This document shows positions 15,876 to 63,987 of a DNA stretch of 64,000 bases, piece by piece. The notes under the pieces were generated by a model. The model searched no databases and had not been told where the DNA came from. It worked only from the letters and a program-made list of their open reading frames with translations. Source of the stretch: Cyanobacteria bacterium HKST-UBA04 (GTDB taxonomy: Bacteria > Cyanobacteriota > Vampirovibrionia > Vampirovibrionales > JAGQHJ01); contig JAGQHJ010000001.1 in NCBI GenBank assembly GCA_020431915.1, forward strand, positions 23,044 to 87,043, given 5' to 3'. A program made the translations under genes and the position numbers. Every line of letters begins with the position of its first letter. The stretch's first letter is position 1.

Positions 15876-17498
15876 CTAGCTTAAGCCCTCGGGCTGATAC
15901 CCCTGCGGGTACTGCTTGGCCTGGAAGAACGGCGTGGTGTAGGGCGACGAGGCATAACCGCTTCCCGGTGACATCCAGGATGCATAGGTCATCGGTACCG
16001 GGCCGGCACTTACCAGGGGCGAATACGGCGAAGCGGCGGGCATCGGCTCAGCCACTTGATACGTGGGGGTATACACCGGCCGGGAGGGTTCTACCACGGG
16101 CCGGGCCGTCTGCAACTGGTACTCGGGCAGCGGCAGTACCGTATAGCTACCGGGCTGGAAGTTCCGAAACGCCACGGCCCGCTCAACAGCCTTGGACTCC
16201 TGGGAGCCAGCCGGGTCGGAAAAATGTTTGGCCACCGTGTCCTGCAACGTATGCAAGTGTCTTGGCGCGTTGGGCAGGGTCGCGGAATCAACCTGCGGTG
16301 ACACCGCTTGCAGCTTCTTGTTGTGCAGGCGCCGGGTCAACCAGATATTCAACAGCTGGGGGGTAATGGCCAACATCCCAATGGAGATGGCCATGCCGGT
16401 CAGGAACTTGGCGTTCTTAACCCCAATCAGCCGCTTGCGCAGCGCACCGCTGTACTTCGAGATAACCTTGTCGTAAGCGGGAATATCCTGACTGCCGGAC
16501 TTGGCCATCGTGTTGAACTGGTTCTTGAAGGCCGGATCGACCAGAAACCGGTTAAACACCGAGAACCACAACACACTGTTGGCGGCCTTGATAAATTGTT
16601 CCCGAAACTCGTTTTCACCGCGCGACGCATGCATCCAGCCCCCATAGGCCGGTGTCAGCCAAAAAATCAAAATCGGCCAGAACCCGCGAACCTGGTTGCC
16701 GGAGTCCCCGCCCAAATGGAAGGTCTTGTAGGTTCGCTCCAGCAATTGGGACAACGGCTTTCGGGCAGCTCCGTTCAAGCGCCCCCGGGCCATCATGCCA
16801 AACCCCAGCAAGGCGGCAGCGCCCACGGCGGTACCCAGACCCATAATTTTTTGGGCCATGCCTTTCTGGAAAGCCTTTTCCTCTTCCAGGCTGCGGTGGG
16901 GGGCAGGGGAATGGCTGACCGAGGCCGCAGCCTCCGCCCCCTTGCTCAAGCCGATAATCTGGTCAAAGTTGGCGGTCTTCTCCCGACGCAGGGTCATCCA
17001 GTTGCGAAAAAATGCCGCACCCCAAAACGCGGCGGCAAAGGGCACCAGAAAACCAAACGCCGTACCCAGCCGGGCCAGTTTCACGGCGGGTGTCAGCTGC
17101 TCGGGCTTGAGGGTGCCCTTGAGCAGGTGCCTGGGCACGCCGCTAATTTGGCTGCTGACCCACTGCAGAATGGGGGGCAACACCAGCGAACTGCCCAAGG
17201 TTACAGACGTGTTGCTCAACTCAAGCGTGGCCACATCCAGCATTTCCTTGTGGGTGCGGGTGGTGGCCATTTTAGGCAGGTTGAAGCATGTAATGTCCTT
17301 GAACACCAACTCGGCCAAGGGATTACTCTCAAACCACGCAATGCCACGGGTGAGCAACGTGGGGGAAAACCCAAACTGGGGTTGTTTCCCTGCTGGCGGG
17401 CCTTGGCCCAACAACGATATGTCCGCGGCTTGCTCAGGGGGCAGAACCCTTAGGTCAGCCCTGGCCCGGGGCGGTTTGCTCTTTACTAAAGGAATCAA
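15876..17498 (-). CDS. Hypothetical multi-pass membrane protein with Tyr/Pro/Ser-rich C-terminal tail
   Basis: Long ORF with about 5 hydrophobic segments. Probable TTG start at 17498 after AAGGA; the ORF is open to 17660. Confidence 0.7.
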   Translation of the reverse strand: MIPLVKSKPPRARADLRVLPPEQAADISLLGQGPPAGKQPQFGFSPTLLTRGIAWFESNPLAELVFKDITCFNLPKMATTRTHKEMLDVATLELSNTSVTLGSSLVLPPILQWVSSQISGVPRHLLKGTLKPEQLTPAVKLARLGTAFGFLVPFAAAFWGAAFFRNWMTLRREKTANFDQIIGLSKGAEAAASVSHSPAPHRSLEEEKAFQKGMAQKIMGLGTAVGAAALLGFGMMARGRLNGAARKPLSQLLERTYKTFHLGGDSGNQVRGFWPILIFWLTPAYGGWMHASRGENEFREQFIKAANSVLWFSVFNRFLVDPAFKNQFNTMAKSGSQDIPAYDKVISKYSGALRKRLIGVKNAKFLTGMAISIGMLAITPQLLNIWLTRRLHNKKLQAVSPQVDSATLPNAPRHLHTLQDTVAKHFSDPAGSQESKAVERAVAFRNFQPGSYTVLPLPEYQLQTARPVVEPSRPVYTPTYQVAEPMPAASPYSPLVSAGPVPMTYASWMSPGSGYASSPYTTPFFQAKQYPQGYQPEGLS

Positions 17499-17695
17499 AA
17501 CCGGTTCCTTTGAGATGTTTTTTGGAGTGTTGTATCGCTGATTTAGTATGCCAAAAACCAGCCTATAAGTAAACGAGCCATGCCAGCTTGTGGCTGGAAT
17601 CTGTAACGATTTCGTGGTCTTTTGCCACACATCCGGCACCAGGCACCATGGGAGAATCAAACCCCGACCACCCCACCAATTGCCCCCGTAATCGC

Positions 17696-18718
17696 TTAAA
17701 TCAAGCCCACGCTACGCAGGACCACGCCAGTCTGCTCGATGGGATGCTGGCTGTCGGCCTCTACCCGGCTTTTAGTTTCGGGATATCCCGCCCCGGCTTC
17801 GGCTTTCAGGGCCGTCATAAACGAACCCGACCGGATGCGTTCGAGCACCGCCTGCATGGAGGCCTTTACATGGGCATCAATCACCCGGGACCCCTGGGAT
17901 ACATCGCCATAACAAGCCGTGGGACTGATGGCGCGACGCATGCCCGTAATACCGCCTTCGTGCAGCAGGTTGGCCAGCAGCCGGATTTCATGGAGGCACT
18001 CGAAGTAGGCAATTTCGGGGCTATAGCCGGCCTCCGTCAACACCTCAAACGCGGCCTTGGCCAGGTGGCTTAGGCCGCCACACAACACCGCCTGTTCGGC
18101 AAAGAGATTGGTTACCGCCTCTTCCTCGACGGTGGTTTGCAATATGCCGGCCCAATGGCAGCCCAGTGCCCGACCGTAGGCCAGCGCCACGTCCAGGGTA
18201 TCGCCCGTGGCATCGCGGTGCACGGCCACCAGCCCCGGCACGCCCGACTGGCTGAGAAAATGGGCCCGCACCCCCTTGCCCTGGGCCTTGGGGGCCATCA
18301 GAAAAACATTGACCGACTCGGGCGGATCAATCCACCCGGCCAGCAGGGCCAGCCCATGACAAAACCCCAAGTATTGGCCCGGCCTCAAGTTCGGCCTGAC
18401 GTAGGTGTCGTACACCGAGGCAATCGCCGCATCGGGTAACAGCAGCATCACCACGTCACTTTGGGCAACGGCCTCCTCGATGCCGCACACCGTCAACCCG
18501 TCGGCTTGGGCAAGCGCCCTGTTGGCCGAAGCCGATCGCAGTCCCACAACCATCTCCAAACCGGTATCGTGAAGGTTTAGGCTTTGGGGACGGCCCTGGT
18601 TACCATAGCCAATAATGGCCACACGCTTGTTCAGCAGTGGCTCAAGGCTTACGGCATCGTCCCGGTAAAGGGTACGACTAAGGCCTGTTTGCTTCGAAGG
18701 CAGGGAACACGTTGTCAT
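17696..18718 (-). CDS. ilvC: Ketol-acid reductoisomerase (short class I)
   Basis: RVAIIGYGNQG, LLPDA, FCHGL, MAPKAQG, LFAEQAVLCGG, PEIAYFECLHE, ISPTACYG. Confidence 0.93.
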   Translation of the reverse strand: MTTCSLPSKQTGLSRTLYRDDAVSLEPLLNKRVAIIGYGNQGRPQSLNLHDTGLEMVVGLRSASANRALAQADGLTVCGIEEAVAQSDVVMLLLPDAAIASVYDTYVRPNLRPGQYLGFCHGLALLAGWIDPPESVNVFLMAPKAQGKGVRAHFLSQSGVPGLVAVHRDATGDTLDVALAYGRALGCHWAGILQTTVEEEAVTNLFAEQAVLCGGLSHLAKAAFEVLTEAGYSPEIAYFECLHEIRLLANLLHEGGITGMRRAISPTACYGDVSQGSRVIDAHVKASMQAVLERIRSGSFMTALKAEAGAGYPETKSRVEADSQHPIEQTGVVLRSVGLI

Positions 18719-18905
18719 GAAAGGGGTTTCGCAGGTTACCACCGTGTGGCCTTAACTTATCATAAGCACCAAACTTACGGTACAATCTTGCGGTACAATG
18801 CTCAAGCCGTTTTCTGGCACCCTTGTTTAACACCTTAATTGTTCGACATCAGGCACGGCCGTCGTTAATGGAACACTCCCCTGCTAGATAGGATTAACCC
18901 GACCC

Positions 18906-20432
18906 GTGGATACCCCCAACCCCACCTCCCCCGTTAAAACCAGCGATACCCTCGACGAAAAAACCGGCATCGACCGGATTCGAGAAACCCGGCTGGAAAA
19001 AGCACAGCAGTTGCAGGCACAGGGTATTAATCCCTACCCCTACACTTTTGACAAAACCCATACCAACCAGGGCCTTCAGGATCACTATGCCGAACTGCCG
19101 GACGGAACCGAGCTGGAAGACACGGTACAGGTAGCCGGCCGTATTATGGCCCTGCGCAACAGCGGCATGTTTATTGATTTAATGGACGACACGGGCAAGC
19201 TGCAACTGTTTTGCCACAAGGAAAACCTCAGCCCGGAACAGATGGGGATCGTCAAGCTGCTGGACGTTGGCGACATGGTGGGGGCCACAGGAACCATTCG
19301 CCGCACCCCCCGTGGCGAACTGTCAATCAAGGCCAAGAACCTGACCGTGTTGTGCAAGTCGCTGCGGCCGCTGCCCGAAAAGTACCATGGCCTGACGGAT
19401 GTGGAAACGCGCTACCGGCAGCGCTACCTGGATTTGATCATGAACCAGGACAGCCGCCAAACCTTGCGCAAACGAAGCGAAATTGTCACCGCCATCCGAC
19501 AGTTTTTCGTGTCCCAGGGCTTTATGGAAGTAGAAACCCCAATTCTACAAGCCATTGCCGGAGGGGCTGCGGCACGGCCTTTCATTACCCACCACAACAC
19601 GCTGGACATGGACATGTACCTGCGCATTGCCCCCGAGCTGTTTTTGAAACGCCTGGTTGTCGGGGGACTCAGCGAAAAGGTATTTGAGCTGAACCGTAAC
19701 TTCCGAAACGAAGGCATTTCGCCCAAGCACAACCCGGAATTTACGATGCTCGAAGCCTACCAGGCCTACGCCGATTACCACGACATGATGGATCTGACCG
19801 AGACCATGGTCACGACCGTCGCCGAGCAGGTTTTTGGCACACTTACCTTCACCTTCGGCGAAAACGAACTGGACTTGCGCCGCCCCTGGAAACGGCTCAC
19901 CATGATTGAAGGGGTACGCGAAGCCACCGGCCTCGATTTTGATCAGATTGGCACCGTGGAAGCGGCCCGTCAGGCAGCCAAACAGGTACACGTAGCCGTT
20001 GAAGACTATTTTGGCTGGGGAAAAATCCTGGAGGCCATTTTCGAAGAAAAAGTAGAGCATACCCTGATTCAGCCGGTCCATGTGATTGACTACCCCAAGG
20101 AAACCTCGCCGCTGGCCAAGGTACACCGTAGCGATGCCCGCCTTGTGGAGCGCTTTGAAACCCGTATTAACGGCTGGGAAATTGCCAACGCCTTCTCCGA
20201 GCTCAGCGACCCCGTGGATCAGCTGGCCCGCTTCGAGGCCCAGCTAAAAGACCGCGAAGGTGGTGACGACGAGGCCCATGGCATGGACGAGGATTACGTG
20301 ACGGCACTCGAATACGGCCTGCCACCCACCGGTGGGCTGGGCATCGGTATTGATCGCCTGATTATGCTGTTAACCAATTCACCTAATATTCGCGATGTCA
20401 TTGCGTTTCCAACCATGCGTCCACGCGACTGA
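18906..20432 (+). CDS. lysS: Lysine-tRNA ligase, class II
   Basis: RQRYLDL, EVETPILQ, YLRIAPELFLKRL, FRNEGISPKHNPEFTMLE, GLGIGIDRL. GTG start. Confidence 0.98.
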   Translation: MDTPNPTSPVKTSDTLDEKTGIDRIRETRLEKAQQLQAQGINPYPYTFDKTHTNQGLQDHYAELPDGTELEDTVQVAGRIMALRNSGMFIDLMDDTGKLQLFCHKENLSPEQMGIVKLLDVGDMVGATGTIRRTPRGELSIKAKNLTVLCKSLRPLPEKYHGLTDVETRYRQRYLDLIMNQDSRQTLRKRSEIVTAIRQFFVSQGFMEVETPILQAIAGGAAARPFITHHNTLDMDMYLRIAPELFLKRLVVGGLSEKVFELNRNFRNEGISPKHNPEFTMLEAYQAYADYHDMMDLTETMVTTVAEQVFGTLTFTFGENELDLRRPWKRLTMIEGVREATGLDFDQIGTVEAARQAAKQVHVAVEDYFGWGKILEAIFEEKVEHTLIQPVHVIDYPKETSPLAKVHRSDARLVERFETRINGWEIANAFSELSDPVDQLARFEAQLKDREGGDDEAHGMDEDYVTALEYGLPPTGGLGIGIDRLIMLLTNSPNIRDVIAFPTMRPRD

Positions 20433-20644
20433 TCGACCCGAATAGCCCACCCTACCGGCTACAAGCCGCCCGCGTTTCCTTCTGCCCTACCAAAGCGCGG
20501 GGCAAATCGCATGCCGGTTATTTATATAACTTAACAAAGGGTCGGTTTTAGGCAATCGACGCATGGATATATTTTTTATATATATAGCTTCGTATGGTTT
20601 GAACGCCACTTTGACACGCAACTTAGGGATGATGGACGACACCT

Positions 20645-21343
20645 ATGGCATTAAATGTAAGCACCCCCCAACTGGCCAACCTGTTTAGCTCGGTACCGGT
20701 TAACCGCCAGACCTCGGCCATTGCCGCCCTGACGCTGCAGGACATGGCCAAGAACAACCTCGTTAAGGCCCAAGGTGCCCGAAATGTAAGCTTTTACGGC
20801 AATGCCTTCGAATTTCAGGCTAATGCCAACGTGCTTAACGACACCGCAAACCTGTTTGCCACACTGGCGGTTCGTCCCCAGCTTTTCAACCGGATGGCCG
20901 GAGCCGACGGCTTTTTGTCCTTCCAGGAACTCAACACCGCCGCCTCCATTGACGGCCAGGAAGGCTTATCCAGCTTTGACTTACAACGAATTAGCCCGGA
21001 AACGTACAACCCCAACCAGCCGGTAAGCCGTTACCAGCTTGAAACCATCGCCTATGGCGGCCCTGTCGGCGGCTATGGCAGTGGTTATAGCAGTGGTTTT
21101 GGCGGTGTCGGCAGTGTCGGTAGTTTCAACGGCGGCTTTGCCAACAGTTTTATCAACCCCTATCAGGGTTTAGGTCAAGGTTTAAGCCAGGGGTTTCAGA
21201 GCGTTCAGGGTCAGAGCCCCTACGGCCTGATGCAACCCCCCGTATTTTCGGCTCAAATCAACCCCTATCAGAACCTTGCAGCCCAGCCGTCCCTCGGCTA
21301 TGGCGGCTTTCCCCCCGGCATGACAGCCGGTTTCGGGTTTTAA
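20645..21343 (+). CDS. Hypothetical protein with EF-hand-like motifs and Gly/Tyr/Gln-rich C-terminus
   Basis: AGADGFLSFQEL and SIDGQEGLSSFDL loops, then a GGYGSGYSSGFGG low-complexity tail. Followed by a terminator. Confidence 0.7.
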   Translation: MALNVSTPQLANLFSSVPVNRQTSAIAALTLQDMAKNNLVKAQGARNVSFYGNAFEFQANANVLNDTANLFATLAVRPQLFNRMAGADGFLSFQELNTAASIDGQEGLSSFDLQRISPETYNPNQPVSRYQLETIAYGGPVGGYGSGYSSGFGGVGSVGSFNGGFANSFINPYQGLGQGLSQGFQSVQGQSPYGLMQPPVFSAQINPYQNLAAQPSLGYGGFPPGMTAGFGF

Positions 21344-21401
21344 GATCCCCCCAGTTCGCTTAATTCGGTTATCATAACAGCCGTTTTAGTGCGTTTCACC
21401 T

Positions 21402-21441
21402 AAAACACCGGTCGTGCCTCATTTGGGCGGCCGGTGTTTTT
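21402..21441 (+). terminator. Intrinsic terminator
   Basis: AAAACACCGGTCG...CGGCCGGTGTTTTT inverted repeat ending in a T-tract, downstream of the 20645 gene. Confidence 0.75.
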
Positions 21442-21626
21442 CTACCACCTCGCTTTCCTGCAAAACGGCTTGGGTAATGGGTTTAGGCCGGTCGACACAA
21501 CGGGTCGACCCAAGGGGGCACTTCGTCGTATGATGATAGACCGTTTTTGGCGCGTCGTTGTCATTGTCTCGCATTGCCCGGCTACGCCTGGCCTGGCCAA
21601 AACACCCCAGCCGCTTTAGCTTTGTC

Positions 21627-23171: not shown

Positions 23172-23173
23172 GT

Positions 23174-24433: not shown

Positions 24434-24481
24434 TCTTCCGCCCACCCAATAAACCGGGCATGCCAAAAATCCCCCCTCCCT

Positions 24482-26693: not shown

Positions 26694-26726
26694 CCCCACA
26701 CACGCCGATCACCGCCGTTTTTCGAC

Positions 26727-29351: not shown

Positions 29352-29500
29352 CCACCCTCTCTAGGGCCTGGTGTGTGCAGAGGTTACCTGCTCTCAACCC
29401 CTTGTGCACTCGGGTTCATAAAGCCCGTGTTACCTGGCTGGCCGGTAAAGAAAAGGCTTTTGTTATCTAAACCCAGAGCACGCGCCAAGCCGCACAACAC

Positions 29501-31045: not shown

Positions 31046-31112
31046 AAGGGCTAAAGGCTTTCTTTATTTGCAGGGTCGTAAACGTAAAAAAAGTGGGTCT
31101 CAAGGTCTATGC

Positions 31113-31140
31113 GACGGACCATGCGAGACGGGCCATGCGA
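31113..31140. repeat. 14-bp tandem repeat upstream of pyk
   Basis: GACGGACCATGCGA then GACGGGCCATGCGA (1 mismatch). Confidence 0.7.
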
Positions 31141-31422
31141 CCCCAGGCATGCATGTAAATAGTCGCAATGTAATAGTATAGTCAGCACATGGCTTCAATA
31201 AAAGGGTTTTGGGCAAGTCGCCTGCCGGTGCAGCGGCAAGCCATTGTGCTTGAACTTCGAGCACGGCCAACATCAAGCCCCCCTGCCATGATTGCCAAGC
31301 CGCCTTGGTCTTGTTATAGTGTTATGCCTTGAAATTCGAGCAAACGCCCGCCTACCCGCTCAAAGGCCCGGTAAGCCGGATTTCAGGCCAAAACAAGCTT
31401 ATTTCAGGAGTGTCCCGCCCCC

Positions 31423-31593: not shown

Positions 31594-31622
31594 CCCCTAA
31601 TCGAGAAGGATTTGCGCCCCCC

Positions 31623-32039: not shown

Positions 32040-32070
32040 GCGATTAACCCCCTGCCCATAATCCTTTAAT

Positions 32071-32106: not shown

Positions 32107-32145
32107 AAATGTAAAACGGAAAGGCGCGCGTGCACCGTCTCCTTG

Positions 32146-33462
32146 CTAGAAGGTGGCAAACTCGTTGGAACCGGCGTCGACATTGGCGGTTTCGTTGAAC
32201 AGGATGTCAATGACGTCACGGGTTTGACCGTTCTTAAGGGTAACTTGGCTGGCATACGGGGCTTCGTTGAAGTTAAGCACCTTCTCCTGCACGTTGAAGC
32301 CCAGGTTGATGCTGGCCACGTCCTGGTCGGCCAACGAGGTCAGCTCGCCGGCATCCATCACGGCATCACCGTTCTTGTCGTGCCAAGCCATGACGGTACC
32401 ATCGCTGTAGGCAGCATCCTTGCTGTCCAGCTTGCCGTCACCGTTGACGTCGGCCACGGCGGCCACTTCGGTAAAGGCGTTGTCGTCGTCGGCACCGCTG
32501 GTGGCTTCTCCGGCCAGGCGATAGGTACCATCGTCGTTCTTCAGGACCACGAAGAAGTCGTCACTACCGGCTTCCACCCAGCTGGTCTGGCGGCCATTGT
32601 AGTTGACGTTCTGATCCTTGGTCACGGCAAACCCGTCACCGTTTTTGTCAATCAACATGGGGGTATAGCTGAAGAGGGAGGCAACCACTCGAACGATCTT
32701 GTCATAGAGATTACCGGACCAGCTCGACGAATCCTTGTCGGACGGCACGCGGTACTCGATGGCGGCACCTGGGTTAAAGGCCATGAAGGCATTGACCAGT
32801 TCTCGAATATTGCGCGCCGCAATATTCTGGTGGGTTTTGCTGTGGATAATGGATTTGGTGTGAGCCTTAAGATTGGCCATGGTCGCCGGTTCGCGCGTTC
32901 CGTCAGGCAGCACGATGGTACCGTAGTTGGCCAAATCCTTTTCGGTAAAGGTAATTTTCTCGCCGTCGGCCGTCACGATGTTCAGGGTTTGGCCATTAAA
33001 GCGCATGTTCTTGTTGACGTCTTTGAGGATCTCCTGCGCTTCGGCTTTTTCCCGGTCAAAACCGGCACGCGAACCATTATAGTCGTAGCGGGTGTTGTTT
33101 TTGATGACCCAGTTCAGGGTACCATCGTTTTTCGCAGCGTTGCGGGCCACAAACACGCCTTCGACCATCGGAGGTTCGGAAGAAGGCAGCGGGGAGCCGG
33201 AAGAGGGTAAGGTCGAATAATCGCTGCCAAAAATATCGTCCAACGAAGGTGTGGGGGCATCGTCACCCACCACCAGCACGTTGTTTTGGCCGGAAATCTG
33301 GGTAATGTTCAGGTCGGCATTGCCGGTAGCCCGGAAGAAGTTAAGCAGGTCGGCAATCTGGGTACCTTGAATACTACGGCCGGCCGGCAGGGAGACATCG
33401 GCAAAATTCACCTTTCCTCGTTGCTCAAACAGATCTGTAAAACGTTGGCCAATACTGGTCAT
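32146..33462 (-). CDS. Hypothetical Ca-binding exoprotein-like protein (DxNGDG repeats)
   Basis: C-terminal PMLIDKNGDG...DVNGDGKLDSKD...WHDKNGDAVMDAGELTSLA...SINL resembles the module in hemolysin/RTX-associated exoproteins. SD AAGGAG before ATG 33462. Confidence 0.75.
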   Translation of the reverse strand: MTSIGQRFTDLFEQRGKVNFADVSLPAGRSIQGTQIADLLNFFRATGNADLNITQISGQNNVLVVGDDAPTPSLDDIFGSDYSTLPSSGSPLPSSEPPMVEGVFVARNAAKNDGTLNWVIKNNTRYDYNGSRAGFDREKAEAQEILKDVNKNMRFNGQTLNIVTADGEKITFTEKDLANYGTIVLPDGTREPATMANLKAHTKSIIHSKTHQNIAARNIRELVNAFMAFNPGAAIEYRVPSDKDSSSWSGNLYDKIVRVVASLFSYTPMLIDKNGDGFAVTKDQNVNYNGRQTSWVEAGSDDFFVVLKNDDGTYRLAGEATSGADDDNAFTEVAAVADVNGDGKLDSKDAAYSDGTVMAWHDKNGDAVMDAGELTSLADQDVASINLGFNVQEKVLNFNEAPYASQVTLKNGQTRDVIDILFNETANVDAGSNEFATF

Positions 33463-33614: not shown

Positions 33615-34553
33615 TCATTCTTTTACCCACAGCCTGCCTACGGCTTCCGGGTGGGCTAAAACTCGGTTTCGCCCGGCCTCAAGCGGTCTAAAGCCGTGGG
33701 ACTGCAGGGCCTGGCGCACAGGTACGGCATGGGGAGAGGTCATTTCGCCATGGCCGAGTACCACCAGCGACCCTGCCGCCATGGCCTTCTTTAAATTAGC
33801 AGCCAGGGTATCCCAGTCCTGTCGGGGCAGTTGATACCACACATTGTTTAAAAACAGCACCACCGGCTGACACAACGGCCCTTTGGCCAGCTCCCGCACA
33901 TCAACCGAATCCTCGTCCACCATCAGATGGTCCATCAAGGATCGGTCCACCTCAACCGGCAAAAACGCCGCGTTGTTCACCTCGTCAATGTCCCATTTCA
34001 CCCCATCCCCGTGAAAAACCGGGGCATCCCCCTCCATGCGGCGAAACGCCAAGGAGGCATGGTCGGTTACCGGCGAAAAAACGTGACCCACCGAGGTTTC
34101 CAATGCCCGCTGCAAGGTGTCTACATCTTGCTGGCCAGGCCGAAGTCGAAGCAGCCGCTGCTTCGACAGCATTTTGAGCCGGCTCGGCAGCAAGTCCGAC
34201 ACGTACACCACAAACGACTCCAAACGACGCCCCAGGGCACGGCTTAACAAGGTGGCCGACTGGCCCACGGCCACCGACCCATCGGAGGCACCGGGCATAT
34301 ACAACGACCAGCACACCGGCTCTTGCGACGCATCGCTCGGCCGGCTGGCCTCATAATTAAGCATGGCCTGCTTAACGGCCAAATACGTGGGTATCGCCTC
34401 GGTAATATCGCACGAACAATCCAGCAATTGGTCGCCCCAATGGTGCTGCACCGCCACATTGGCAAACCGCGGCCGGCTGGCCCCAGCTACCCTATTTTTC
34501 AGAGCCACAACGGGACGATCAGCGTCCTTTAAGGCCGTTACCTGTAATACCAT
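33615..34553 (-). CDS. Divergent CheR-like SAM-dependent methyltransferase-fold protein (paralog 1)
   Basis: MPGASDGS, YVSDLLPSRL, VLFLNNVWYQL, MAAGSLVVLGHGE and C-terminal GRLWVKE. Most degenerate of the three. Confidence 0.55.
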   Translation of the reverse strand: MVLQVTALKDADRPVVALKNRVAGASRPRFANVAVQHHWGDQLLDCSCDITEAIPTYLAVKQAMLNYEASRPSDASQEPVCWSLYMPGASDGSVAVGQSATLLSRALGRRLESFVVYVSDLLPSRLKMLSKQRLLRLRPGQQDVDTLQRALETSVGHVFSPVTDHASLAFRRMEGDAPVFHGDGVKWDIDEVNNAAFLPVEVDRSLMDHLMVDEDSVDVRELAKGPLCQPVVLFLNNVWYQLPRQDWDTLAANLKKAMAAGSLVVLGHGEMTSPHAVPVRQALQSHGFRPLEAGRNRVLAHPEAVGRLWVKE

Positions 34554-34777
34554 CTCAACCAAACCCGATTCCCAACCACCACGCACGACCACACCGAACT
34601 TATGGCAAATTCATACCTTATTTCATGTGGGCGCACCGTAATTTTCGTTATACCTTAGTCCAACATAAAAAACAACCATTCATGGATTTGCTCAGCACAG
34701 CCTCAACCCGACCCACTGCTTGGGCCGAATATGAGCAACTTCAGCGGTTCAATACCGTATTCCAAAAGGAATACGCG

Positions 34778-35017
34778 TTACACGAATTCCTGTAATTCGC
34801 GGCCATAGCGCTTCAGCGCCGACATGAACCCGTAGGTTGTAATGGTTTTAAGCACTTTGGTCGACACGCGAAGGCTGACCATGCGGTTCAACTCAGGCAC
34901 CCACAGGCGTTTAACCTGGGTATTGGGGTGCTGGGGGTGGCGGTGCTTCTTGTTCGAGAAACAAAGCTTGTTGGCGCGGTTGTAGCGCTTTCTGGACACT
35001 TGGCATTTGCGGGACAT
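34778..35017 (-). CDS. rpmB: 50S ribosomal protein L28
   Basis: MSRKCQVS.K...N...FSNKK.R..Q.PN.Q.KRLWVPEL...VSLRVSTKVLKTI. Confidence 0.93.
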   Translation of the reverse strand: MSRKCQVSRKRYNRANKLCFSNKKHRHPQHPNTQVKRLWVPELNRMVSLRVSTKVLKTITTYGFMSALKRYGRELQEFV

Positions 35018-35181
35018 CGGAATCTATTTCCTACTTGTAAACACCTGAGCGCACCAGTCTAGCACGGGGGCCCCTCTAAACTCAAGTCGAGGGCTTGACG
35101 GAGGTTTTTATTTATTACTACAGGTATAAATTCAAGGCCTCCAGGGGAATCCCAAAGCCAAACGACCCCCGTAGAGGGAAA

Positions 35182-35255
35182 GCCGGGTAACCTGCCTGAA
35201 ACCGGCCCGCGCTGTCGACTTCCACCATATCGAGGAGGTTGCCCGGTAGGCAACC
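35182..35255 (+). ncRNA. Candidate structured 5' leader with mutually exclusive stems
   Basis: 35182-35193 pairs with 35236-35247 (12 bp, 2 G-U). Alternatively 35237-35243 pairs with 35249-35255, and 35182-35186 with 35202-35206. No Rfam family recognised. Confidence 0.25.
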
Positions 35256-35300
35256 CGTCATACTGAGAGCACCCCTCCAATCCACAGTCATGTGAGCCCT

Positions 35301-36671
35301 ATGAAGCTATTTCGCCACAAAGCACACCAACAGGCCGAAACAACCGAGTCTGAAACCATAAAGACCAACGCAACGGTTCTTCCCAGCCGGTTTGATTATT
35401 TTTCGCGCCGAAACACCATGCAGCGCCGCCATGGGTTGTCTGCCCCCGGTGCAGGGTTAGCCAGCATGGTGGCCACGGCCCTGGGTGTTTGCCTAGCCAT
35501 GCTGATCATCTTGATGGGGCTTGATTCTGCCCACGCCCTGGATTTATCGGTAAAAGACACCGGGTTCACGGCAGCCGAAGCCATCAGCACCGGCGAAATC
35601 GATGACATGCCCAACGAAGTGATGGTTCGTTACCTGCCACCGGCCCCACCCACACCAGCCCCAGCCGTTACCGTCATGCTGCCCCCCGACAATTCTCTCA
35701 AGAAGAGCCCCGTCGATGATGGCCAGGCTGATCCCACCCTGAGACAACCGGCCAACCTCTCCAAAAAAGCCCTTAACCCGGTTGCCCCACTGGAAACCGC
35801 TCAAAATCATCCGGTCGCCGCTCGCTCCACAGCTGCGCCTGTTGCCCCGATTGCCCTACGCCAACCCACCACCCCGGCCCCCGCCAGTGTGCCGGACCCA
35901 ACCCGAACAACCAGCGCCACCCCCAACGTCACGCAGATACTTAACCAGCTTAGCGACGAGATGGCCGAGCTGCGCCAACAAACCGGTTCGGATACCTACA
36001 CGCCCCCGACCAAGCCCAGCTACGCCATCTTCCCGGTACTCGACCCGCAGGCCTTCAACAAGGCCTACAGCGATTTGCCCGTCATGCAGGCCGCCAAGTT
36101 CGCGACCAACATGACCAAGGCCCTGGTAGCCAAGAACATTGACGCCACAATCCTCAACCCCATCTACAGCTACGACATGCTGCGCGAAAAAGGACTGGAA
36201 CGCATTTACCAACGCCTGGTGCACGACTACACGATGGCCGGCGTGCCGCGCGAACGCGATTTATATGTGCTGACCGACGCACTGAACACGAACCTGCGCA
36301 CGGTTCAGTGGGTGGCCTTTGTCGAAACCCGCCTCGACATGGAAAACCCCACCCACGGCAACGGCCTGAGCAAAATCACGAACCGTATTTACGAGGTCAT
36401 GCAGACCGAGTCGAACTATTTTGCCAACAGCAACCTAAAAGTATACGAAATCACGCCCAAGGGTATTCAACTGGTGTGGGAAGGCACCTCCCGAGCCGTG
36501 ATCAAGGCCAACAAGGCAGGGCCCATTACCAGCTCGATTTTTGACAGCGGCAATGCCCACGACGCCTTTGGCGACGCCACTGATGTAATGGCCCAAACCC
36601 TGCTCAACAGCATGCCGGCCCACCTTAACCCCAGCAAAACCGTAACCGCCAAAATTGCCGGCCAGCCCTAG
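35301..36671 (+). CDS. Hypothetical exported protein with Pro/Thr-rich linker
   Basis: Hydrophobic segment ending ...GLDSAHA|LD (AxA-like cleavage site), P/T/A-rich region, then a globular C-terminal domain. Start uncertain. Confidence 0.7.
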   Translation: MKLFRHKAHQQAETTESETIKTNATVLPSRFDYFSRRNTMQRRHGLSAPGAGLASMVATALGVCLAMLIILMGLDSAHALDLSVKDTGFTAAEAISTGEIDDMPNEVMVRYLPPAPPTPAPAVTVMLPPDNSLKKSPVDDGQADPTLRQPANLSKKALNPVAPLETAQNHPVAARSTAAPVAPIALRQPTTPAPASVPDPTRTTSATPNVTQILNQLSDEMAELRQQTGSDTYTPPTKPSYAIFPVLDPQAFNKAYSDLPVMQAAKFATNMTKALVAKNIDATILNPIYSYDMLREKGLERIYQRLVHDYTMAGVPRERDLYVLTDALNTNLRTVQWVAFVETRLDMENPTHGNGLSKITNRIYEVMQTESNYFANSNLKVYEITPKGIQLVWEGTSRAVIKANKAGPITSSIFDSGNAHDAFGDATDVMAQTLLNSMPAHLNPSKTVTAKIAGQP

Positions 36672-36700
36672 GCACCCTGCCCTCCTCTTCCGCACTATCC

Positions 36701-37774
36701 CTACTGCTTGATCCAAAGCTGGCCTTCATAATCGTGCCCCGTTACCGAACGCCGCGGCACCTCAAACACGGGCTCGAAACCTTCCTGGCGCAGCAAGGCC
36801 GGCACATCCAACCGGTGTTTGGGCAGATCGCCGGGCGAGAATTCACCCAAAGCCGCTTCCATCTGCGCTTGCGAAACCCCCGGAAATAACCGTTGTGCCG
36901 CCAAAAAGGCCAACTGCTTTGCCATGCGGCTGGCGGCCAACGCCACCTCGGACGGCAGGGGGGCCTCCAGTTTTCCGGTCACCAGCAGGCTGCCAGGGGC
37001 CATTTGCTGGCCAAGCAGCCGGGCCACGCGCTGGCATTTCTGCGGGTCCTCCTTGTCCATATACCCCCACACATTGCGAAACAGCACCACACTGGGGCCA
37101 TCCTGGGGCAGGGGATTGGCTTGAAGGTCGGCTTCAATATCGGCCTCGCGAAACGTAACCGGCTCCCGAAGCGCATCACTAACCCGGTACCACTGGTGCT
37201 CGGGCTGACGAAACGGCAACCCGTAGGCATTCAATATCCCGGCCAGGGGAATGGGGATCGACACGGCCTGGCTAAACACCGCACGGTTGTGCCAGGCCTT
37301 AGGATCCGGCGCGTCATTTTGCTGGGCAAACGCTTGGACGGCCTGGTCGGCCAACTCAAGCTCCCGGTCAAAAACCTCGACGTACCCTTCCTGGGCCACG
37401 GCCACCCGGCCCGGATGCAGATCGGAAGCATCAATGGGGTAGGCGGTCATCGGCTTCGAGTCCGGGTGAAGCAGGCCGGTCAATCTCAGGGCATGGGCCA
37501 GGCTCCAGGCATCGCTGCCGTCACTTGCCGCATACACCCGAATGGGGTTGTCGGCAGGCATCCCTTCCGGGAATGTTTCCCGGATACGCATGGCCGCAGG
37601 CAACAGCACGGTCGGCTCGCGCAGCCACGAGGTGGTTTGCCCGGCCACCCCCCGGGGTGTAAGAAACTGACGGGTATACGCGTCGCTGATACCGGCAAAA
37701 CGACTGGCGGACGATGGCCGACGTATACCACACACCACCGCAGGACGAGGCCACAATGAAACGGGCAATGGCAT
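36701..37774 (-). CDS. Divergent CheR-like SAM-dependent methyltransferase (paralog 2)
   Basis: IRVYAASDGSDAWSLA, IDASDLHPGRVAVAQEGY, VTFREADI, VVLFRNVWGYM, MAPGSLLVTG and C-terminal GQLWIKQ. Confidence 0.7.
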   Translation of the reverse strand: MPLPVSLWPRPAVVCGIRRPSSASRFAGISDAYTRQFLTPRGVAGQTTSWLREPTVLLPAAMRIRETFPEGMPADNPIRVYAASDGSDAWSLAHALRLTGLLHPDSKPMTAYPIDASDLHPGRVAVAQEGYVEVFDRELELADQAVQAFAQQNDAPDPKAWHNRAVFSQAVSIPIPLAGILNAYGLPFRQPEHQWYRVSDALREPVTFREADIEADLQANPLPQDGPSVVLFRNVWGYMDKEDPQKCQRVARLLGQQMAPGSLLVTGKLEAPLPSEVALAASRMAKQLAFLAAQRLFPGVSQAQMEAALGEFSPGDLPKHRLDVPALLRQEGFEPVFEVPRRSVTGHDYEGQLWIKQ

Positions 37775-37780
37775 TCGGCG

Positions 37781-58335: not shown

Positions 58336-58355
58336 CTCCGCACGGGCTCCTTCGC

Positions 58356-59876: not shown

Positions 59877-60058
59877 AGGCCTGGGGCTGGTCTCCTTTTG
59901 GGCTGGGCTCAAGAGGCCTTCAGTGTAGTACAGACCGACAGCGATTGCACCTGTTGCCCTGAAACAAGATTTAGACGACACCCCGCCCAAATACTGATTT
60001 ACGCGGGGTTTTTGGGTATAATCAGGGCTTCCGTAGCAGCACACCCCACAAGGACGCG

Positions 60059-61999
60059 ATGATGGCCCAACGCAGCACCACCCTGAACAAACCCGTTGCC
60101 CCCACCCAGCAGCTTGCCCAATTGCGGGCCAACGGCGTGGCCATCCTGGACTTCGGCGCCCAGTACACCAAGGTTATCGACCGCCGGGTACGGGCCCTAA
60201 ACATCTATTGCGAAATCCTGCCGCTGTCGACCCCCGTCAGCGAGCTGGATCAGTTCGGCGCGCTCGTTTTGTCCGGCGGTCCGCACAGTGTTTTTGAGGC
60301 CGACGCCCCCCACTTCGACCCGGAGGTACTGACGCTGAACAAGCCCCTGCTTGGTATCTGCTACGGCATGCAATGGCTGGTGCACCACAGTGGCGGCAAG
60401 GTTGAAGCGGCCCAGAGCAAGGAATACGGACAAACCACCATCACGGTTGACCCCGCTACCCCACTTTTTGACGGGCTTTCGGCCCAGCAGGCGGTGCTGA
60501 TGAGCCACGGCGATCATGTTCTGGAGTTGCCCGACGGGTTCGAGCAAATCGGCCAGTCGCCCAGTGCCGTGGCCGCCGTTCGACACGCAGCCAAACGACA
60601 TTACGGGGTGCAGTTCCACCCCGAAGTGGACTTGACCGAGCATGGGCAGACGATGATCAACAACTTCCTGACGAAAGTGGCCGGGCTTAAGCCCGACTTT
60701 ACCCTGCCCCACCGGCTGGACGACATTGTGGGTGATATCCGCCGACAGGTAGGCCACCAGAACGTTATTGTGCTAGTCAGTGGCGGGGTGGATTCGGCCG
60801 TGACGGCAGCCCTGCTGCTCAAGGCCCTGGATCCCAAACAGGTGTATGCCGTGCATATGAACACCGGTTTTATGCGCCACGAGGAAAGCGAGTCGGTTTG
60901 TACCGCCCTGCGAAACCTGGGGCTCACCCACCTGCTTGAACTGGATTGCGCCGACGACTTTTTTAACGCCACGACCACCATCGACGAAAAACCCGTGGGA
61001 CCGCTAAGCCAAACCCTTGACCCAGAAGAAAAACGCCGGCTGATGGGCGACATGTTTTTCAGCCTGACCCAAAGCACCATGAACACGCTGAACCTGGACA
61101 TGGACCATACCTTTATTGCCCAGGGCACCCTCCGCCCCGATCTGATTGAAAGCGGCAGCGTGGAGGTCAGCGCCGTGGCCCACAAAATAAAGACCCACCA
61201 CAACGACGTCCCCATTATCCAGGCGCAACGCGAAAAGGGCTTGATAGTGGAACCCAACCGCGACCTGCACAAGGACGAGGTGCGGCAAATCGGATCGCTG
61301 TTGGGCCTGCCCGACGAACTGGTACACCGCCAACCCTTCCCCGGCCCCGGCCTGGCCATTCGAACCATCTGCACCGATGCTCCCTACGGCCTCGACCAAG
61401 CCAAGGCCCTGATGCAAACCATCACCCCCCTCTGCAGTGGCTTATCCGTTTCGCCCAGCCTGCTACCCATTCGCAGCGTGGGGGTACAGGGCGACTTCAG
61501 AAGTTACCGGCAACCCCTGGCATTGTGCGGCCCGTTCAAAACCATCGGTTGGGAAGCCCTTTCATCGCTGGCACAACGCCTAACCAACGACTGCCATGGG
61601 CTGAACCGCGTAACGCTGGTGCTAAACCCCGACGCCGTTTTACCGCCCATTATCGAAACCATTACCCCCACCACACTGACTCCGGCAACCGTCGCGTTGC
61701 TGCGGGCCATCGATCACCATGTCACCACCACCCTGCAACAGGCTGGCCGCCTCGACGGTATCAGCCAGTTGCTGTCGGTGCTGCTGCCCATCGACACCAT
61801 GCAACAGGGCCGACATAGCGTGGTGATTCGCGGCGTGGTGACCAATGACTACATGACAGCCCGCCCGGTCCGACCCGGTGATGAGCTGCCCTGGCCACTG
61901 CTGCAGGATCTCGATGCCCAGCTGCGGGCCCGGTTCGATCTCGACCTGGTGCTGCTCGACATTACCGCCAAGCCTCCGGCCACGGTGGAATGGGAATAG
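60059..61999 (+). CDS. guaA: GMP synthase (glutamine-hydrolysing), long eukaryote-type form
   Basis: LDFGAQY, GICYGMQ, QFHPEV, SGGVDSAV, QGTLRPDLIES, KTHHND, PFPGPGLAIR and C-terminal KPPATVEWE. Confidence 0.96.
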   Translation: MMAQRSTTLNKPVAPTQQLAQLRANGVAILDFGAQYTKVIDRRVRALNIYCEILPLSTPVSELDQFGALVLSGGPHSVFEADAPHFDPEVLTLNKPLLGICYGMQWLVHHSGGKVEAAQSKEYGQTTITVDPATPLFDGLSAQQAVLMSHGDHVLELPDGFEQIGQSPSAVAAVRHAAKRHYGVQFHPEVDLTEHGQTMINNFLTKVAGLKPDFTLPHRLDDIVGDIRRQVGHQNVIVLVSGGVDSAVTAALLLKALDPKQVYAVHMNTGFMRHEESESVCTALRNLGLTHLLELDCADDFFNATTTIDEKPVGPLSQTLDPEEKRRLMGDMFFSLTQSTMNTLNLDMDHTFIAQGTLRPDLIESGSVEVSAVAHKIKTHHNDVPIIQAQREKGLIVEPNRDLHKDEVRQIGSLLGLPDELVHRQPFPGPGLAIRTICTDAPYGLDQAKALMQTITPLCSGLSVSPSLLPIRSVGVQGDFRSYRQPLALCGPFKTIGWEALSSLAQRLTNDCHGLNRVTLVLNPDAVLPPIIETITPTTLTPATVALLRAIDHHVTTTLQQAGRLDGISQLLSVLLPIDTMQQGRHSVVIRGVVTNDYMTARPVRPGDELPWPLLQDLDAQLRARFDLDLVLLDITAKPPATVEWE

Positions 62000-62039
62000 G
62001 TATCCCCCGCTGCCCGTGTACGTCTCTTATACGAGACTA

Positions 62040-62744
62040 CTATTTTAGGGCCTGAATGGCAGCTACTTCCTCACGCCCAAGCCACTGTGGCTTGAGGTCT
62101 TCCATGTCGAAGCCATGTTGCTGCTCGAGCAACCGCGCCTTGTAGACCATTTCGGCAATGGTCTCAAGCAGCTCCAGCCGGTAAAAGGCCTCGCGAAGAT
62201 CCTCGCCCAGCACCAGCACCCCATGGTTGGCCAGCAGCAGGCAGTTTGCATCGGTGGCGGCATGGGCCACCTCGTTGGCCAGGGCGTGCGAGCCCGGCAT
62301 GGTGTAGGGCACCAGCGGTACCGTACCCAGATGGTAAGCCGACTCGGCAATGATATGACGGTTGATTGGCTGGTGGCAGGCCGCCAGCAACGTGGCATGC
62401 ACACTGTGGGCATGGATGACGGCATGGCAATCGGGCCGGGCATGGTACAGGGCCTGGTGAATAACCCACTCGCTGCTGGGCTTGAAAGGCAGCCGGGTTT
62501 GCCATCCGTCAATCGTCTGGCCTTGGGCATCGACGTGACACACGTTGTTTTCAGCCACCTCGTCCAACGCCAGGCCGGACGGGGTAATCAGCATCCCCTC
62601 GGCGGTACGTACACTAATGTTGCCCGACGTGCCCCGGCTCAAGCCGCTGCGGTACACCCGCGCCGACACCCGGCACAACTCGGCCAGCAGACCACGGTAA
62701 GGCAGGGTGGGCTGGACGGCGACAAGGATATCAGGCAGGGTCAT
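62040..62744 (-). CDS. Class II aldolase/adducin family protein
   Basis: SGNISVR, ITPSG, PSSEWVIH, VIHAHS, LLANHGVLVLG. Substrate not determinable from sequence. Confidence 0.9.
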   Translation of the reverse strand: MTLPDILVAVQPTLPYRGLLAELCRVSARVYRSGLSRGTSGNISVRTAEGMLITPSGLALDEVAENNVCHVDAQGQTIDGWQTRLPFKPSSEWVIHQALYHARPDCHAVIHAHSVHATLLAACHQPINRHIIAESAYHLGTVPLVPYTMPGSHALANEVAHAATDANCLLLANHGVLVLGEDLREAFYRLELLETIAEMVYKARLLEQQHGFDMEDLKPQWLGREEVAAIQALK

Positions 62745-62873
62745 AACGGCGGCGCTCGATAACAATTAAACTGGGGCCATTCTACCAGAGTCCCGGCTAA
62801 AACCGTACCCACCCGCCACCAGGGTTGCCTCATGCGCGCCGGCAGGTATCGTGGCACGCCCACAGATCAAGGC

Positions 62874-62903
62874 AAAAAAAAGCCGATGGGGTTTCCCATC
62901 GGC
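62874..62903 (-). terminator. Intrinsic terminator
   Basis: Perfect 9-bp stem GCCGATGGG/CCCATCGGC followed on the minus strand by T8. Confidence 0.85.
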
Positions 62904-63000
62904 GATAGCATTGTGTGTGTGTCGTGTGCTAAGTCTGTCTGTTTATCATGCCTGTGTCTTAACCAAATGCTGTGTTTATGCGGGTGTTGGCCCTGGGCCC

Positions 63001-63987
63001 CTACGTCATCCGCTCGCCTGCAAACTGCGGCAGGGAGAGCAGGTAGTTGTAATCCTCAACCATGGACAGCACGTCCGGATCGGCATCCACCATATGATCA
63101 TCGTGGTTGCTGTTGGCCATTAACTGGTTGGCCCGGGTGTTGCCCAGGTTGCGCAGCCCGTCACCCAACCGGTCGCCACTGCGGGCCAGCATGGGCACCT
63201 TGGCTTTCGGTTCGATGAGGGATTTAAGCGATTCTTTTTCGTCCTCGGTAAAGAAGGAGCTGTCGGCCTTGGGCCCCAGCGAGTAGGGTAGCTCGGACTT
63301 CTTGCCGAATTTCGGTATCAGCGAGGTTACCGTGTCCTTAAGCTCTTGCCACAGCGTCGGCTCTTCCTCGCCCTCGGGGGCGGGGTTCCAAAGGCGGGCA
63401 TACTGGTGATCGTAAAACTTGACCATCCGCTGCTTCTGCAGCTGCTGGTAGCCGTGTTGTGCAAATTGGCCGCGAACCGATCGATCGTTGACCGGGCCAT
63501 AGGCGGTACGTTCCTCGCTGGGTTGGGCCTGCTGCGTGGCGGGACCAACCGGCACCAAGCCCGCCGTCCCTGCATCAACCGGCCCCAGATCACCAACCGG
63601 TGCCTGGGTCGAAACCATGGCAACGTCACTGCCGGAATACTGTCCACCCTGGCCGTAACCGCCACCTGAGCGGCCACCGCTTTCCCGATCACCAATACCC
63701 CCGACCCGTTGATACCCGGCACCGGTAATGTCACCCAGTTGGGCCCGCGCCCCTTGGGCACCCTCACGGCTGACGGTTTCCTTGTCGTTACGTTCCTGGC
63801 GAAGCGGGGTGGGTAAAGCCGATTGCAAAGGAGCTGGCATACTGGCACCAATGGCACCCGTTGTATGCAGCGCTGTCAAACGTTGACCTTCAGTAGCTTG
63901 TAGCTGGGTCATAGCTTCCTGTTGTAGGGCGGCGGTATATAACGCGTCGGCGTGAACCGGCCCCGAACCTCCAAATTGTGTTGACAT
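63001..63987 (-). CDS. Hypothetical protein with Gly-rich middle region
   Basis: 328-aa ORF followed by a clear terminator. No family recognised. Confidence 0.7.
   Translation of the reverse strand: MSTQFGGSGPVHADALYTAALQQEAMTQLQATEGQRLTALHTTGAIGASMPAPLQSALPTPLRQERNDKETVSREGAQGARAQLGDITGAGYQRVGGIGDRESGGRSGGGYGQGGQYSGSDVAMVSTQAPVGDLGPVDAGTAGLVPVGPATQQAQPSEERTAYGPVNDRSVRGQFAQHGYQQLQKQRMVKFYDHQYARLWNPAPEGEEEPTLWQELKDTVTSLIPKFGKKSELPYSLGPKADSSFFTEDEKESLKSLIEPKAKVPMLARSGDRLGDGLRNLGNTRANQLMANSNHDDHMVDADPDVLSMVEDYNYLLSLPQFAGERMT

Follow-up and report, generated by a model that had tools for sequence, protein, structure and literature searches.

The window analyzed here, a stretch of 64,000 nt from the genome of Cyanobacteria bacterium HKST-UBA04 (C93:23044–87043 of assembly G000, which comprises 2.7 Mb in 180 contigs, denoted by C-numbers such as C93 and C135, at 57% guanine plus cytosine (GC)), encodes several proteins that begin with an N-terminal sequence tag, which recurs throughout this genome and is almost certainly real and under selection. 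The tag is built of three parts, namely a start pattern, a hypervariable and acid-poor leader, and a conserved box, P-[R/Q/(K)]-F-[G/S/A]-x-hydrophobic, which lies just before the folded part of the protein. A preliminary description of the window had listed seven strings ending in a loosely defined Phe-Gly-like motif and had proposed them as a lineage-specific signal for export of an effector repertoire; the pattern it noticed is real, but was defined too loosely and is a small part of the wider tag.

At the N-termini of proteins genome-wide, the strict core P-[R/Q]-F-[G/S/A]-x-hydrophobic was found far above chance. Counts of RF[GAS][GN] were 20 in residues 1–50 and only 2 and 5 in the next two 50-residue windows, and RFG occurred 126 times in residues 1–100 compared with 38 times in residues 101–200, with similar distributions of RFS, RFA and QFG, whereas the control tripeptides RLG, RYG, RIG, RFD, RFN and RF[^GSA] were flat between the same two intervals. 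An unbiased tripeptide scan placed RFG among the top three N-terminal words (93 observed vs 37.4 expected, p=1.6e-14) and PRF among the most enriched ones, and in a scan of four-residue words written in a reduced alphabet, P-[RK]-F-[AGS] ranked directly after the all-hydrophobic signal-peptide word (36 vs 6.1, p=1e-16). Comparison of N-termini with interior windows supports the strict core but not the loose form: F[GAS] was present in 40% of the residue 1–50 windows vs 38% and 34% of the next two, that is, at chance level, which is the outcome that the description itself had named as speaking against it.

Carriers of the tag were defined as proteins with the box 6–60 residues after a start-capable codon, preceded by a polar leader with few acidic residues and no membrane-like character; a start-codon predictor tended to trim leaders, and was not relied on for these proteins. 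Leader and motif together were found in 145 of 2067 proteins (7.0%) and in 48 of 3044 interior control windows (1.6%; odds ratio 4.7, p=2e-23), and from the difference between these two rates about 110 true carriers, or ~5% of the proteome, are expected. A list of 150 carriers fell into 135 BLAST clusters, the largest being five CheR-like proteins, which rules out paralogy as the whole explanation. Along the genome the carriers are mildly clustered, forming 17 adjacent pairs vs 9 expected.

The layout of the tag is exemplified by MRLSAIPPLPTNRSPGQPPSQPVGTPVPECT-RFAG-I, MISALSQPTATAP-RFGR-V, MTVNTVQP-RFGL-ITVL and MRPYSVQPALITPSFRPMAQPNT-RFGL-V. In the sequence logo centered on the Phe of the box (n=117), site −2 was Pro in 33 sequences, site −1 was Arg in 87, Gln in 24 and Lys in 6, site +1 was Gly in 61, Ala in 30 and Ser in 26, and a hydrophobic residue was found at site +3 in 44%. 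Leader lengths had quartiles of 15, 25 and 36 residues (range about 6–60), with 10% of leaders being 10 residues or shorter, and the leaders were composed mainly of Pro (12.6%), Ala (10.9%), Ser (9.5%), Thr (7.9%) and Arg (7.3%), were also rich in Gln, and contained few acidic residues. When the 25 residues preceding all RFG matches were taken unfiltered, Pro was in 1.7-fold excess and Asp/Glu stood at 0.65 of background. The start pattern is weaker, with R/K/T at position 2, L/I/V/P at 3, P at 4, A/L at 5 and V/L/I/T at 6, so that the tendency of carriers reads M-x-[L/I/V/P]-x-[A/P]-[L/I/V]; the hydrophobic fraction at positions 3, 5 and 6 was 0.35–0.39 in carriers vs 0.27–0.29 in all proteins, a modest bias.

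The enrichment was confined to the coding frame. Between the first and the second 100 codons, RFG decreased from 83 to 34 (2.4-fold) and PRF[GSA] from 23 to 4 (5.8-fold) in frame, while the ratio was about 1 in the five other frames for both words. Within the motif, Arg was encoded by all six of its codons and Gly, Ala and Ser by many different ones, and its Phe was encoded by TTT in 87% of cases, equal to the 83% found genome-wide for Phe before GG/GC codons. In 67% of cases the in-frame score of a leader exceeded its out-of-frame score, yet leaders scored below gene interiors. A motif acting at the DNA level, or an untranslated 5′ extension mistaken for a leader, is ruled out by the frame control, the codon diversity and the context-matched TTT usage.

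Conservation of the box was followed in relatives, which were sampled at 0.2–0.4 Mb each and not as whole genomes. G000 belongs to a GTDB family (f1) that includes four further genera (G001–G004), and every clear orthologue pair between a G000 carrier and a sampled f1 genome keeps [RQ]F[GSA], with leaders that are unalignable; in these pairs, two neighbouring G001 genes correspond to C102:20545 and C102:22728, a G001 gene to C124/C136, and a G003 gene to C92:36625. The box is located where the hypervariable leader gives way to the conserved part, as in RFGL/ITVLNPT of three paralogues and RF[AS]G/I of the five CheR-like proteins, where the slash marks the border. For the carrier C124:2415, 119 homologues were recovered by an exhaustive HMMER search of 1.84 billion representatives clustered at 50% identity; a word-based search for relatives of one carrier had returned that carrier alone. 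Among its 88 short homologues, [RQ]F[GSA] was present within residues 3–70 in 38 vs 3 of 88 in a control window, the remaining ones with a leader mostly showed KFG[F/G/R/S], RFQG, RFRG or AFG directly before the conserved domain, and two long homologues begin MKIQDSAASLQP-RFTG and MQPPSSYQPA-RFSG.

The family formed by C124:2415–3269, C136:652–1524 and the 119 metagenomic homologues is itself Pfam-less, about 250–290 residues long and widespread in metagenomes; its core comes right after the tag (…LDF…G.S.V.QN..IY..VI.SR….R..NER.E..RRD..GW..WF), and some members are C-terminal domains of proteins of 540–670 residues.

Across the order of Vampirovibrio, which consists of non-photosynthetic relatives of cyanobacteria, the tag is a family-level character that is independent of base composition. 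It was present in all four sampled f1 genomes (G000, G001, G003 and G004; GC 43–57%) and absent from the four genomes sampled in the sister families f2 and f3. Carriers made up 9.0% of proteins vs 2.8% of controls in G001 (GC 50%; p=0.002), and RF[GSA] occurred 18 times in the first 60 residues vs 13 times in the next 140 in G003 (GC 43%; p=0.001) and 25 vs 18 times in G004 (GC 53%; p=0.0001), whereas the distribution was flat in G005 and G013 of f2 (GC 46% and 43%) and in G006 and G024 of f3 (GC 50% and 52.5%). Because the tag is present at GC 43–57% within the family and absent at GC 43–53% outside it, an artefact of GC content or composition is rejected. The proposal of a lineage-specific N-terminal linear motif is thus borne out at the level of the GTDB family once the core is tightened; a generic measure of leader-like N-termini gave no separation of the families.

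Most carriers are genus- or family-restricted orphans. They are mostly soluble, with a median length of 260 residues, and 45 of the 60 scanned carriers had no Pfam domain vs 2 of 20 non-carrier neighbours in the window (Fisher p=7e-8 for the first 40 carriers), which upholds the enrichment of orphans that had been suggested. No Pfam match covered any leader of the scanned carriers, and NCBIfam at E≤1 gave nothing relevant. The domains that were identified comprise GH77, peptidase M16, subtilase (S8), HATPase_c, NUDIX, EF-hand, a C-terminal J-domain, beta-lactamase-like, FtsH-like and CheR-like domains, with sigma region 4 or a GntR helix-turn-helix (HTH) found within large carrier proteins; ETF-alpha, an aminotransferase, an ABC ATPase and a TolC-like protein are clearly not true carriers. 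For the effector repertoire envisaged in the preliminary description, these proteins speak in part, since a few effector-like domains do occur on carriers (CheR-like methyltransferase, EF-hand, J-domain, NUDIX, S8, M16 and GH77), but three of the five core cases on which it relied are paralogues and by themselves give no convergence. Its observation that a Sec-type hydrophobic core is missing holds for most carriers: leaders are polar, only 12–16 of 150 matches look like ordinary signal peptides with a hydrophobic core, and in 117 of 150 none of the 13-residue windows within the 35 residues that follow the box reaches a mean hydropathy of 1.0.

Two of the enzymes among the carriers show further features. 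The GH77 protein (C169:48732–50930) is a 4-alpha-glucanotransferase (PF02446, E=2e-58), that is, a starch/glycogen-active enzyme, and its 35-residue leader ends in RFGR. The M16 peptidase (C146:3544–5121) is conserved across the order, always with a disordered N-terminal extension of 50–110 residues that has no Sec signal, and its orthologues in f2 and f3 often start with MISP…; QFAS appears only in the G000 copy of this orthologue series, so the M16 match is probably a chance one. Long acid-poor N-terminal extensions may predate the RFG box.

Within the window, translations, residue counts and reading of the DNA placed all seven listed strings at the residues given for them, and five of the seven fit the supported core, while the two others, in the proteins at 47190 (AFG) and 11187 (GFG), are without the R/Q of the consensus (Table 1). 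Three of the five core cases are CheR-like paralogues, so the window alone cannot separate common ancestry from a common signal. These paralogues are CheR-like S-adenosylmethionine (SAM) methyltransferases and not bona fide CheR. The SAM-binding family PF01739 matched the 36701 protein above the cut-off, the 37781 protein below it (E=1.4e-3) and the 33615 protein not at all, and no CheR N-domain family was found at E≤0.01 in any of the three, whose N-terminus is instead the leader, predicted without structure. An AlphaFold2 model of the 37781 protein (predicted template modelling (TM) score 0.71) has a per-residue confidence (pLDDT) <50 for residues 1–52, which include the box, and a CheR-like fold thereafter, with the CheR structures 1af7, 5y4r and 1bc5 as top Foldseek matches (E about 1e-7, TM 0.38–0.53). 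The genes adjoining these paralogues are not che genes. The three align from a common Met with an invariant R-F, and when the two further CheR-like paralogues of the genome (C161:8244 and C169:5773) are included, the Phe of the motif is among just 23 invariant columns, while leader length differs by >12 residues.

The other listed cases are of unequal weight. The 15876 protein is a weaker carrier, with an uncertain start and three acidic residues in its leader; an AAAGGAA purine box 9–16 nt upstream of TTG 17498 is Shine-Dalgarno-like and agrees with the genome start-site profile. The motif of the 63001 protein has no leader, and leaderless or very-short-leader forms were seen elsewhere in the genome too, for example MRLSAV-QFGQ at C99:442. 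Variants with AFG or AFQG, as in the 47190 protein, occur in homologues of another carrier family, that of C124:2415. In the 11187 protein FG dipeptides occur throughout, so its GFGN is probably a chance match; this protein (11187–12326, + strand; 379 residues) is Gly/Pro/Gln/Ala-rich and nearly uncharged, with numerous FG and PY repeats and, at its C-terminus, a Met-rich helix (…SSLFSQIFPMFMQMFSALMQQLDG); it has no Pfam match.

Table 1. Tagged and tag-like proteins of the window and gene sets for flagellar-type export in G000 (positions without contig number refer to the window)
Feature	Position	Strand	Sequence or content
Cluster of three CheR-like methyltransferase paralogues, all tagged	33615..38872	-	33615-34553, 36701-37774, 37781-38872
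Leader and motif, CheR-like paralogue 37781-38872	38774..38872	-	MRLSAILPEVSPAFPVLARQSAPNASGAL-RFSG, F31 from ATG 38872
Leader and motif, CheR-like paralogue 36701-37774	37691..37774	-	MPLPVSLWPRPAVVCGIRRPSSAS-RFAG, F26; PF01739 E=6e-9
Leader and motif, divergent CheR-like paralogue 33615-34553	34458..34553	-	MVLQVTALKDADRPVVALKNRVAGASRP-RFAN, F30; start ATG 34553 supported by alignment with the Met of the paralogues
Leader and motif, multi-pass membrane orphan 15876-17498	17367..17498	-	(TTG)IPLVKSKPP...GKQP-QFGF, F42 from TTG 17498
Motif without leader, orphan 63001-63987	63967..63987	-	MST-QFGG at extreme N-terminus, F5
Orphan 47190-48095, Pro/Ala-rich 42-residue leader followed by AFG (F43)	47190..47321	+	Without consensus R/Q; not counted as carrier
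Gly/Pro/Gln-rich low-complexity protein 11187-12326	11187..11237	+	MVQPISASPTVTT-GFGN, F15; off consensus
Export set 1, with classical flagellar genes	C126; C118; C119		FliPQR-FlhB-FlhA on C126; FlgBC-FliEFGHI on C118; FlgFG, P and L rings, FlgKL on C119
Export set 2, main cluster	C135:3366-15046		Two FlgF/G-like rod genes, FlgB- and FlgC-like genes, SLT lytic transglycosylase, FliE, FliF2, FlhA2
Export set 2, elsewhere	C104 (52175-53587, 111849-113923); C158:52053-53159		FliPQR2 and, apart, FliI2 on C104; FlhB2 on C158

The remainder of the window consists mostly of housekeeping genes (TGT, biotin carboxylase, H+-PPase, UvrD, KARI, LysRS, PriA and pyruvate kinase), and its LysRS is nearest to Melainabacteria/Gastranaerophilales metagenome-assembled genomes (61–66% identity), with Cyanobacteria next. 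False positives occur among these genes as well, namely LNKRFGN in an ABC ATPase (24482) and RFSF at the TolC-like gene 21558, the latter lying upstream of the probable true start. Two Pfam-less genes, at 20645–21343 (+ strand) and 32146–33462 (− strand), have tag-like starts (MALNVSTPQLANLFSSVP… and MTSIGQRFTD…, respectively) without a canonical box, and may be degenerate or variant carriers. Low-complexity Pro/Tyr/Gln/Ser/Gly tracts (…YSPLVSAGPVPMTYASWMSPGSGYASSPYTTPFFQAKQYPQGYQPEGLS) are a second recurrent feature of the orphans of this lineage; they begin or end several of them, carriers or not, as at 15876–16150 (the C-terminus of the 15876 protein), C104:102790, C95:1301, C102:20545 and C158:58543.

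Candidate machines that could read the tag were searched for in the genomes of the order. Type IV export, one of the routes that had been suggested, is unlikely, as VirB4 (PF03135) was not found in any of five f1 genomes; it was found, as several genes, in two of three sampled genomes of the f3 genus g20 (G024 and G026), and Vampirovibrio chlorellavorus (3.03 Mb, 51.4% GC) has three type IV secretion system (T4SS) operons (PMC4451040). Neither the type VI secretion marker TssC nor a phage-type contractile sheath was found in f1, and TatC is present throughout, including the sister families without the tag. Two FlhA-family genes were found in each of 31 genomes of the order. G000 encodes two full flagellar-type export gates (FlhA, FlhB and FliPQR each) and two FliI, and the second of these sets is divergent but complete and lies scattered in the genome (Table 1); in its C135 cluster the FlgB- and FlgC-like genes were assigned by N-terminal sequence, and FlgC also by BLAST. 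No injectisome-specific part turned up, only flagellar-type clusters with rod proteins, FliE and FliF, although no search was aimed at SctC or SctF. The genome also encodes at least six flagellin/FlgL-like paralogues of about 280–300 residues (C55:727, C120:16319 and 17564, C44:7343, C71 and C95).

Some carriers lie close to the second export set. Two are located within the C135 basal-body cluster, an orphan carrier is found upstream of FliI2 at a distance of 78 nt, and FlhA2 of G004 is flanked by three carriers; those inside or adjoining the C135 cluster are genus-specific orphans. Since both gates also occur where the motif is absent, the tested cluster genes are order-wide and the adjoining carriers are genus-specific, there is only a suggestive link between carriers and this type III secretion system (T3SS). 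Nevertheless, the two flagellar-type gates are the only identified machines that read unstructured N-terminal signals, which makes a flagellar-type T3SS the leading candidate.

Judged from the sequences, the balance tips slightly toward the tag being an export or targeting signal of any kind. Export with a flagellar-type T3SS as the leading candidate reader, taken as one statement, falls just short of an even chance in our estimate, and that the tag would be read specifically by such a system is plausible, though less likely than not. If the tag is an export signal, it would serve as an address label for a Sec-independent route and mark an effector-like repertoire that evolves fast. At a flagellar-type gate, substrates would dock through the RFG box, on the cytoplasmic domains of FlhB/FlhA or on an accessory protein, after which the hydrophobic residues of the extreme N-terminus would engage the gate and open it. 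This proposed mechanism is modelled on the early flagellar (rod and hook) subunits, which carry two N-terminal signals, hydrophobic residues 2–5 and a gate recognition motif with FlhB-C as its docking site (Bryant et al. 2022, PMC8983047), and in which the two signals must lie at least 26–30 residues apart in Salmonella, as found for FlgD (PMC8983047). More far-reaching, and in our view unlikely, is the possibility that the second, divergent flagellar-type system of the order has the RFG leader as its substrate tag; in f1, which lacks the T4SS that has been proposed for Vampirovibrio, this system would have become a general exporter or injector of effectors that uses a sequence-defined signal of its own. 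That would represent a second independent conversion of the flagellar machine into an effector-delivery device and the first T3SS-type signal with a readable consensus, from which the effector sets of uncultured predators could be read from genomes.

Several points weigh against flagellar-type export of the tagged proteins. The adjacency to the second system rests on 3–6 genes and could be due to chance at a carrier density of 7%; both gates are also encoded in sister families without the motif; the TPR protein and orf639 beside the second cluster are conserved order-wide; and neither a family-specific receptor nor a family-specific part of the second flagellar cluster was found in our searches. 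The canonical rod proteins of either system are without RFG, and the tag instead resides on about 100 unrelated orphans that are not flagellar parts. The consensus of its box (P-R/Q-F-G/S/A) is defined and includes a basic residue; the box matches neither the position nor the pattern published for the flagellar gate motif, and its distance from the start, about 6–60 residues, is often below the 26–30 required in Salmonella, a quarter of leaders having 15 residues or fewer. About a quarter of the 145–150 listed carriers are expected to be false positives, the ~2,300 G000 open reading frames were called crudely, by codon log-odds and greedy non-overlap and with equally crude start choices, and the acid-poor property of the leaders is partly imposed by the carrier filter. 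Finally, three rules describe Pseudomonas syringae effectors (Schechter et al. 2012, PMC3338616): Ser makes up >10% of residues 1–50, position 3 or 4 is aliphatic or Pro, and residues 1–12 include no acidic one. The Ser rule was followed by only 21% of carriers vs 13% of all proteins. The other two rules were followed more often, position 3 or 4 being I/L/V/P in 71% of carriers vs 54% of all proteins, and residues 1–12 being free of acidic ones in 81% vs 47% (partly via the filter); all three rules together applied to 17% vs 5%.

Alternatively, the tag could be a cytoplasmic short linear motif, in which leader and box would be bound inside the cell by a partner such as a chaperone, a modifying enzyme, or a protease adaptor or degron reader; this partner would set the stability or activity of lineage-specific proteins, with no export involved. 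The absence of a confident predicted structure for the tag and its location directly before the fold are as in short linear motifs, the cargo includes folds that are typically cytoplasmic (CheR-like methyltransferase, NUDIX, J-domain, sigma region 4 and GntR HTH), and no family-specific secretion machine was found in f1. However, the strict extreme N-terminal location is more typical of sorting signals, which also fit better with the N-terminal hydrophobic/Pro bias, with the strong preference for orphans and with the rapid turnover of carriers, and no candidate partner was identified; we therefore consider this explanation improbable, though it deserves to be kept in view. Somewhat less probable still is a propeptide or processing site, at which a dedicated protease would cut at or beside R-F-[G/S/A], for activation or for maturation along an export route, and which may hold together with export of the tagged proteins. 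The box always lies at the border of the hypervariable leader and the conserved mature part, its small residue after and basic residue before the Phe resemble protease sites, and M16 and S8 peptidases are themselves among the carriers. On the other hand, no protease was linked to the tag by synteny or phyletic pattern, M16 orthologues occur order-wide and mostly without the box, and leaderless carriers such as MST-QFGG and MRLSAV-QFGQ leave almost nothing to be removed.

Very improbable is a host-organelle address, whereby the leaders would mimic eukaryotic transit peptides or presequences (uncharged, hydroxylated and Pro-rich, with an Arg near an aromatic residue) and steer delivered proteins inside an algal or protist host. 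The order includes an algal predator (PMC4451040), one carrier is the GH77 starch/glucan enzyme, and the leaders are rich in Pro, Ala, Ser, Thr and Arg with few acidic residues, but a bacterial export step would still be required, R-F-[GSA], having no spacer, does not match the R-2/R-3 processing motifs, and many leaders are too short (<15 residues). A variant Sec or Tat signal peptide, with R-F as the junction of n-region and h-region or as a degenerate twin-arginine motif, is largely refuted by the hydropathy results, by the single Arg in place of a pair, and by the sister families, which have TatC and signal peptides yet no enrichment, even though TatC is encoded and a minority of matches are clearly such signals, for example MIQPPPTIGKRFGALAIAVLMALAPLGG. 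Chance combined with paralogy, that is, a loose four-residue pattern seen on a few proteins of which three are paralogues, would suit the loose F[GAS] and the three CheR-like proteins among the five core cases, but is refuted for the strict motif by the positional, frame-specific and cross-genome enrichment (p 1e-14 to 1e-23), the 135 unrelated clusters, and the box conserved in orthologues and among the 88 metagenomic homologues.

Consensus-bearing N-terminal tags, such as those of Tat substrates, the lipobox and prepilins, have each opened a secretion field because their substrates become predictable from sequence. Here, in an uncultured lineage that is related to the only known predatory cyanobacterial relative, about 5% of the proteome bears a consensus tag, and the tagged proteins are nearly all orphans or have effector-like domains; no description of such a tag was found in the literature by a search that was not exhaustive. 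If the tag is an export signal, it would provide about 100 candidate effectors per genome and a mutational handle (RFG to AAA), and would pose the concrete question of what role the second flagellar-type export gate of the order plays. Even if cytoplasmic, it would constitute a proteome-scale linear motif without a described reader.

Compared with known signals, the tag shares features with several and coincides with none of them. With organelle targeting peptides, which are acid-poor, rich in hydroxylated residues and processed at R-2/R-3 motifs, it shares a leader of variable length that is acid-poor and rich in hydroxylated residues, Pro and Ala, and, as in mitochondrial and chloroplast peptides, an Arg-aromatic-small junction before the mature protein; it differs in its occurrence on bacterial proteins, in a spacing that is not R-2/R-3 and in its many very short leaders. 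Like the Tat signal (S/T-R-R-x-F-L-K), it is an N-terminal Arg-Phe consensus box that defines its substrates in a genome encoding TatC, but it has a single Arg directly before the Phe, mostly lacks an h-region and is absent from TatC-bearing sister families. Injectisome effector signals are compositional biases without a conserved sequence box, unlike the tag, but they are likewise N-terminal, disordered and acid-poor, and mark a large, fast-evolving and orphan-rich repertoire. The dual signal of early flagellar subunits resembles the tag in its two-part build within an unstructured N-terminus, where small hydrophobic residues after the Met are followed by a spacer and a short, Phe-containing hydrophobic motif; in both there is no cleavable hydrophobic core, and G000 encodes the matching machines in two copies.

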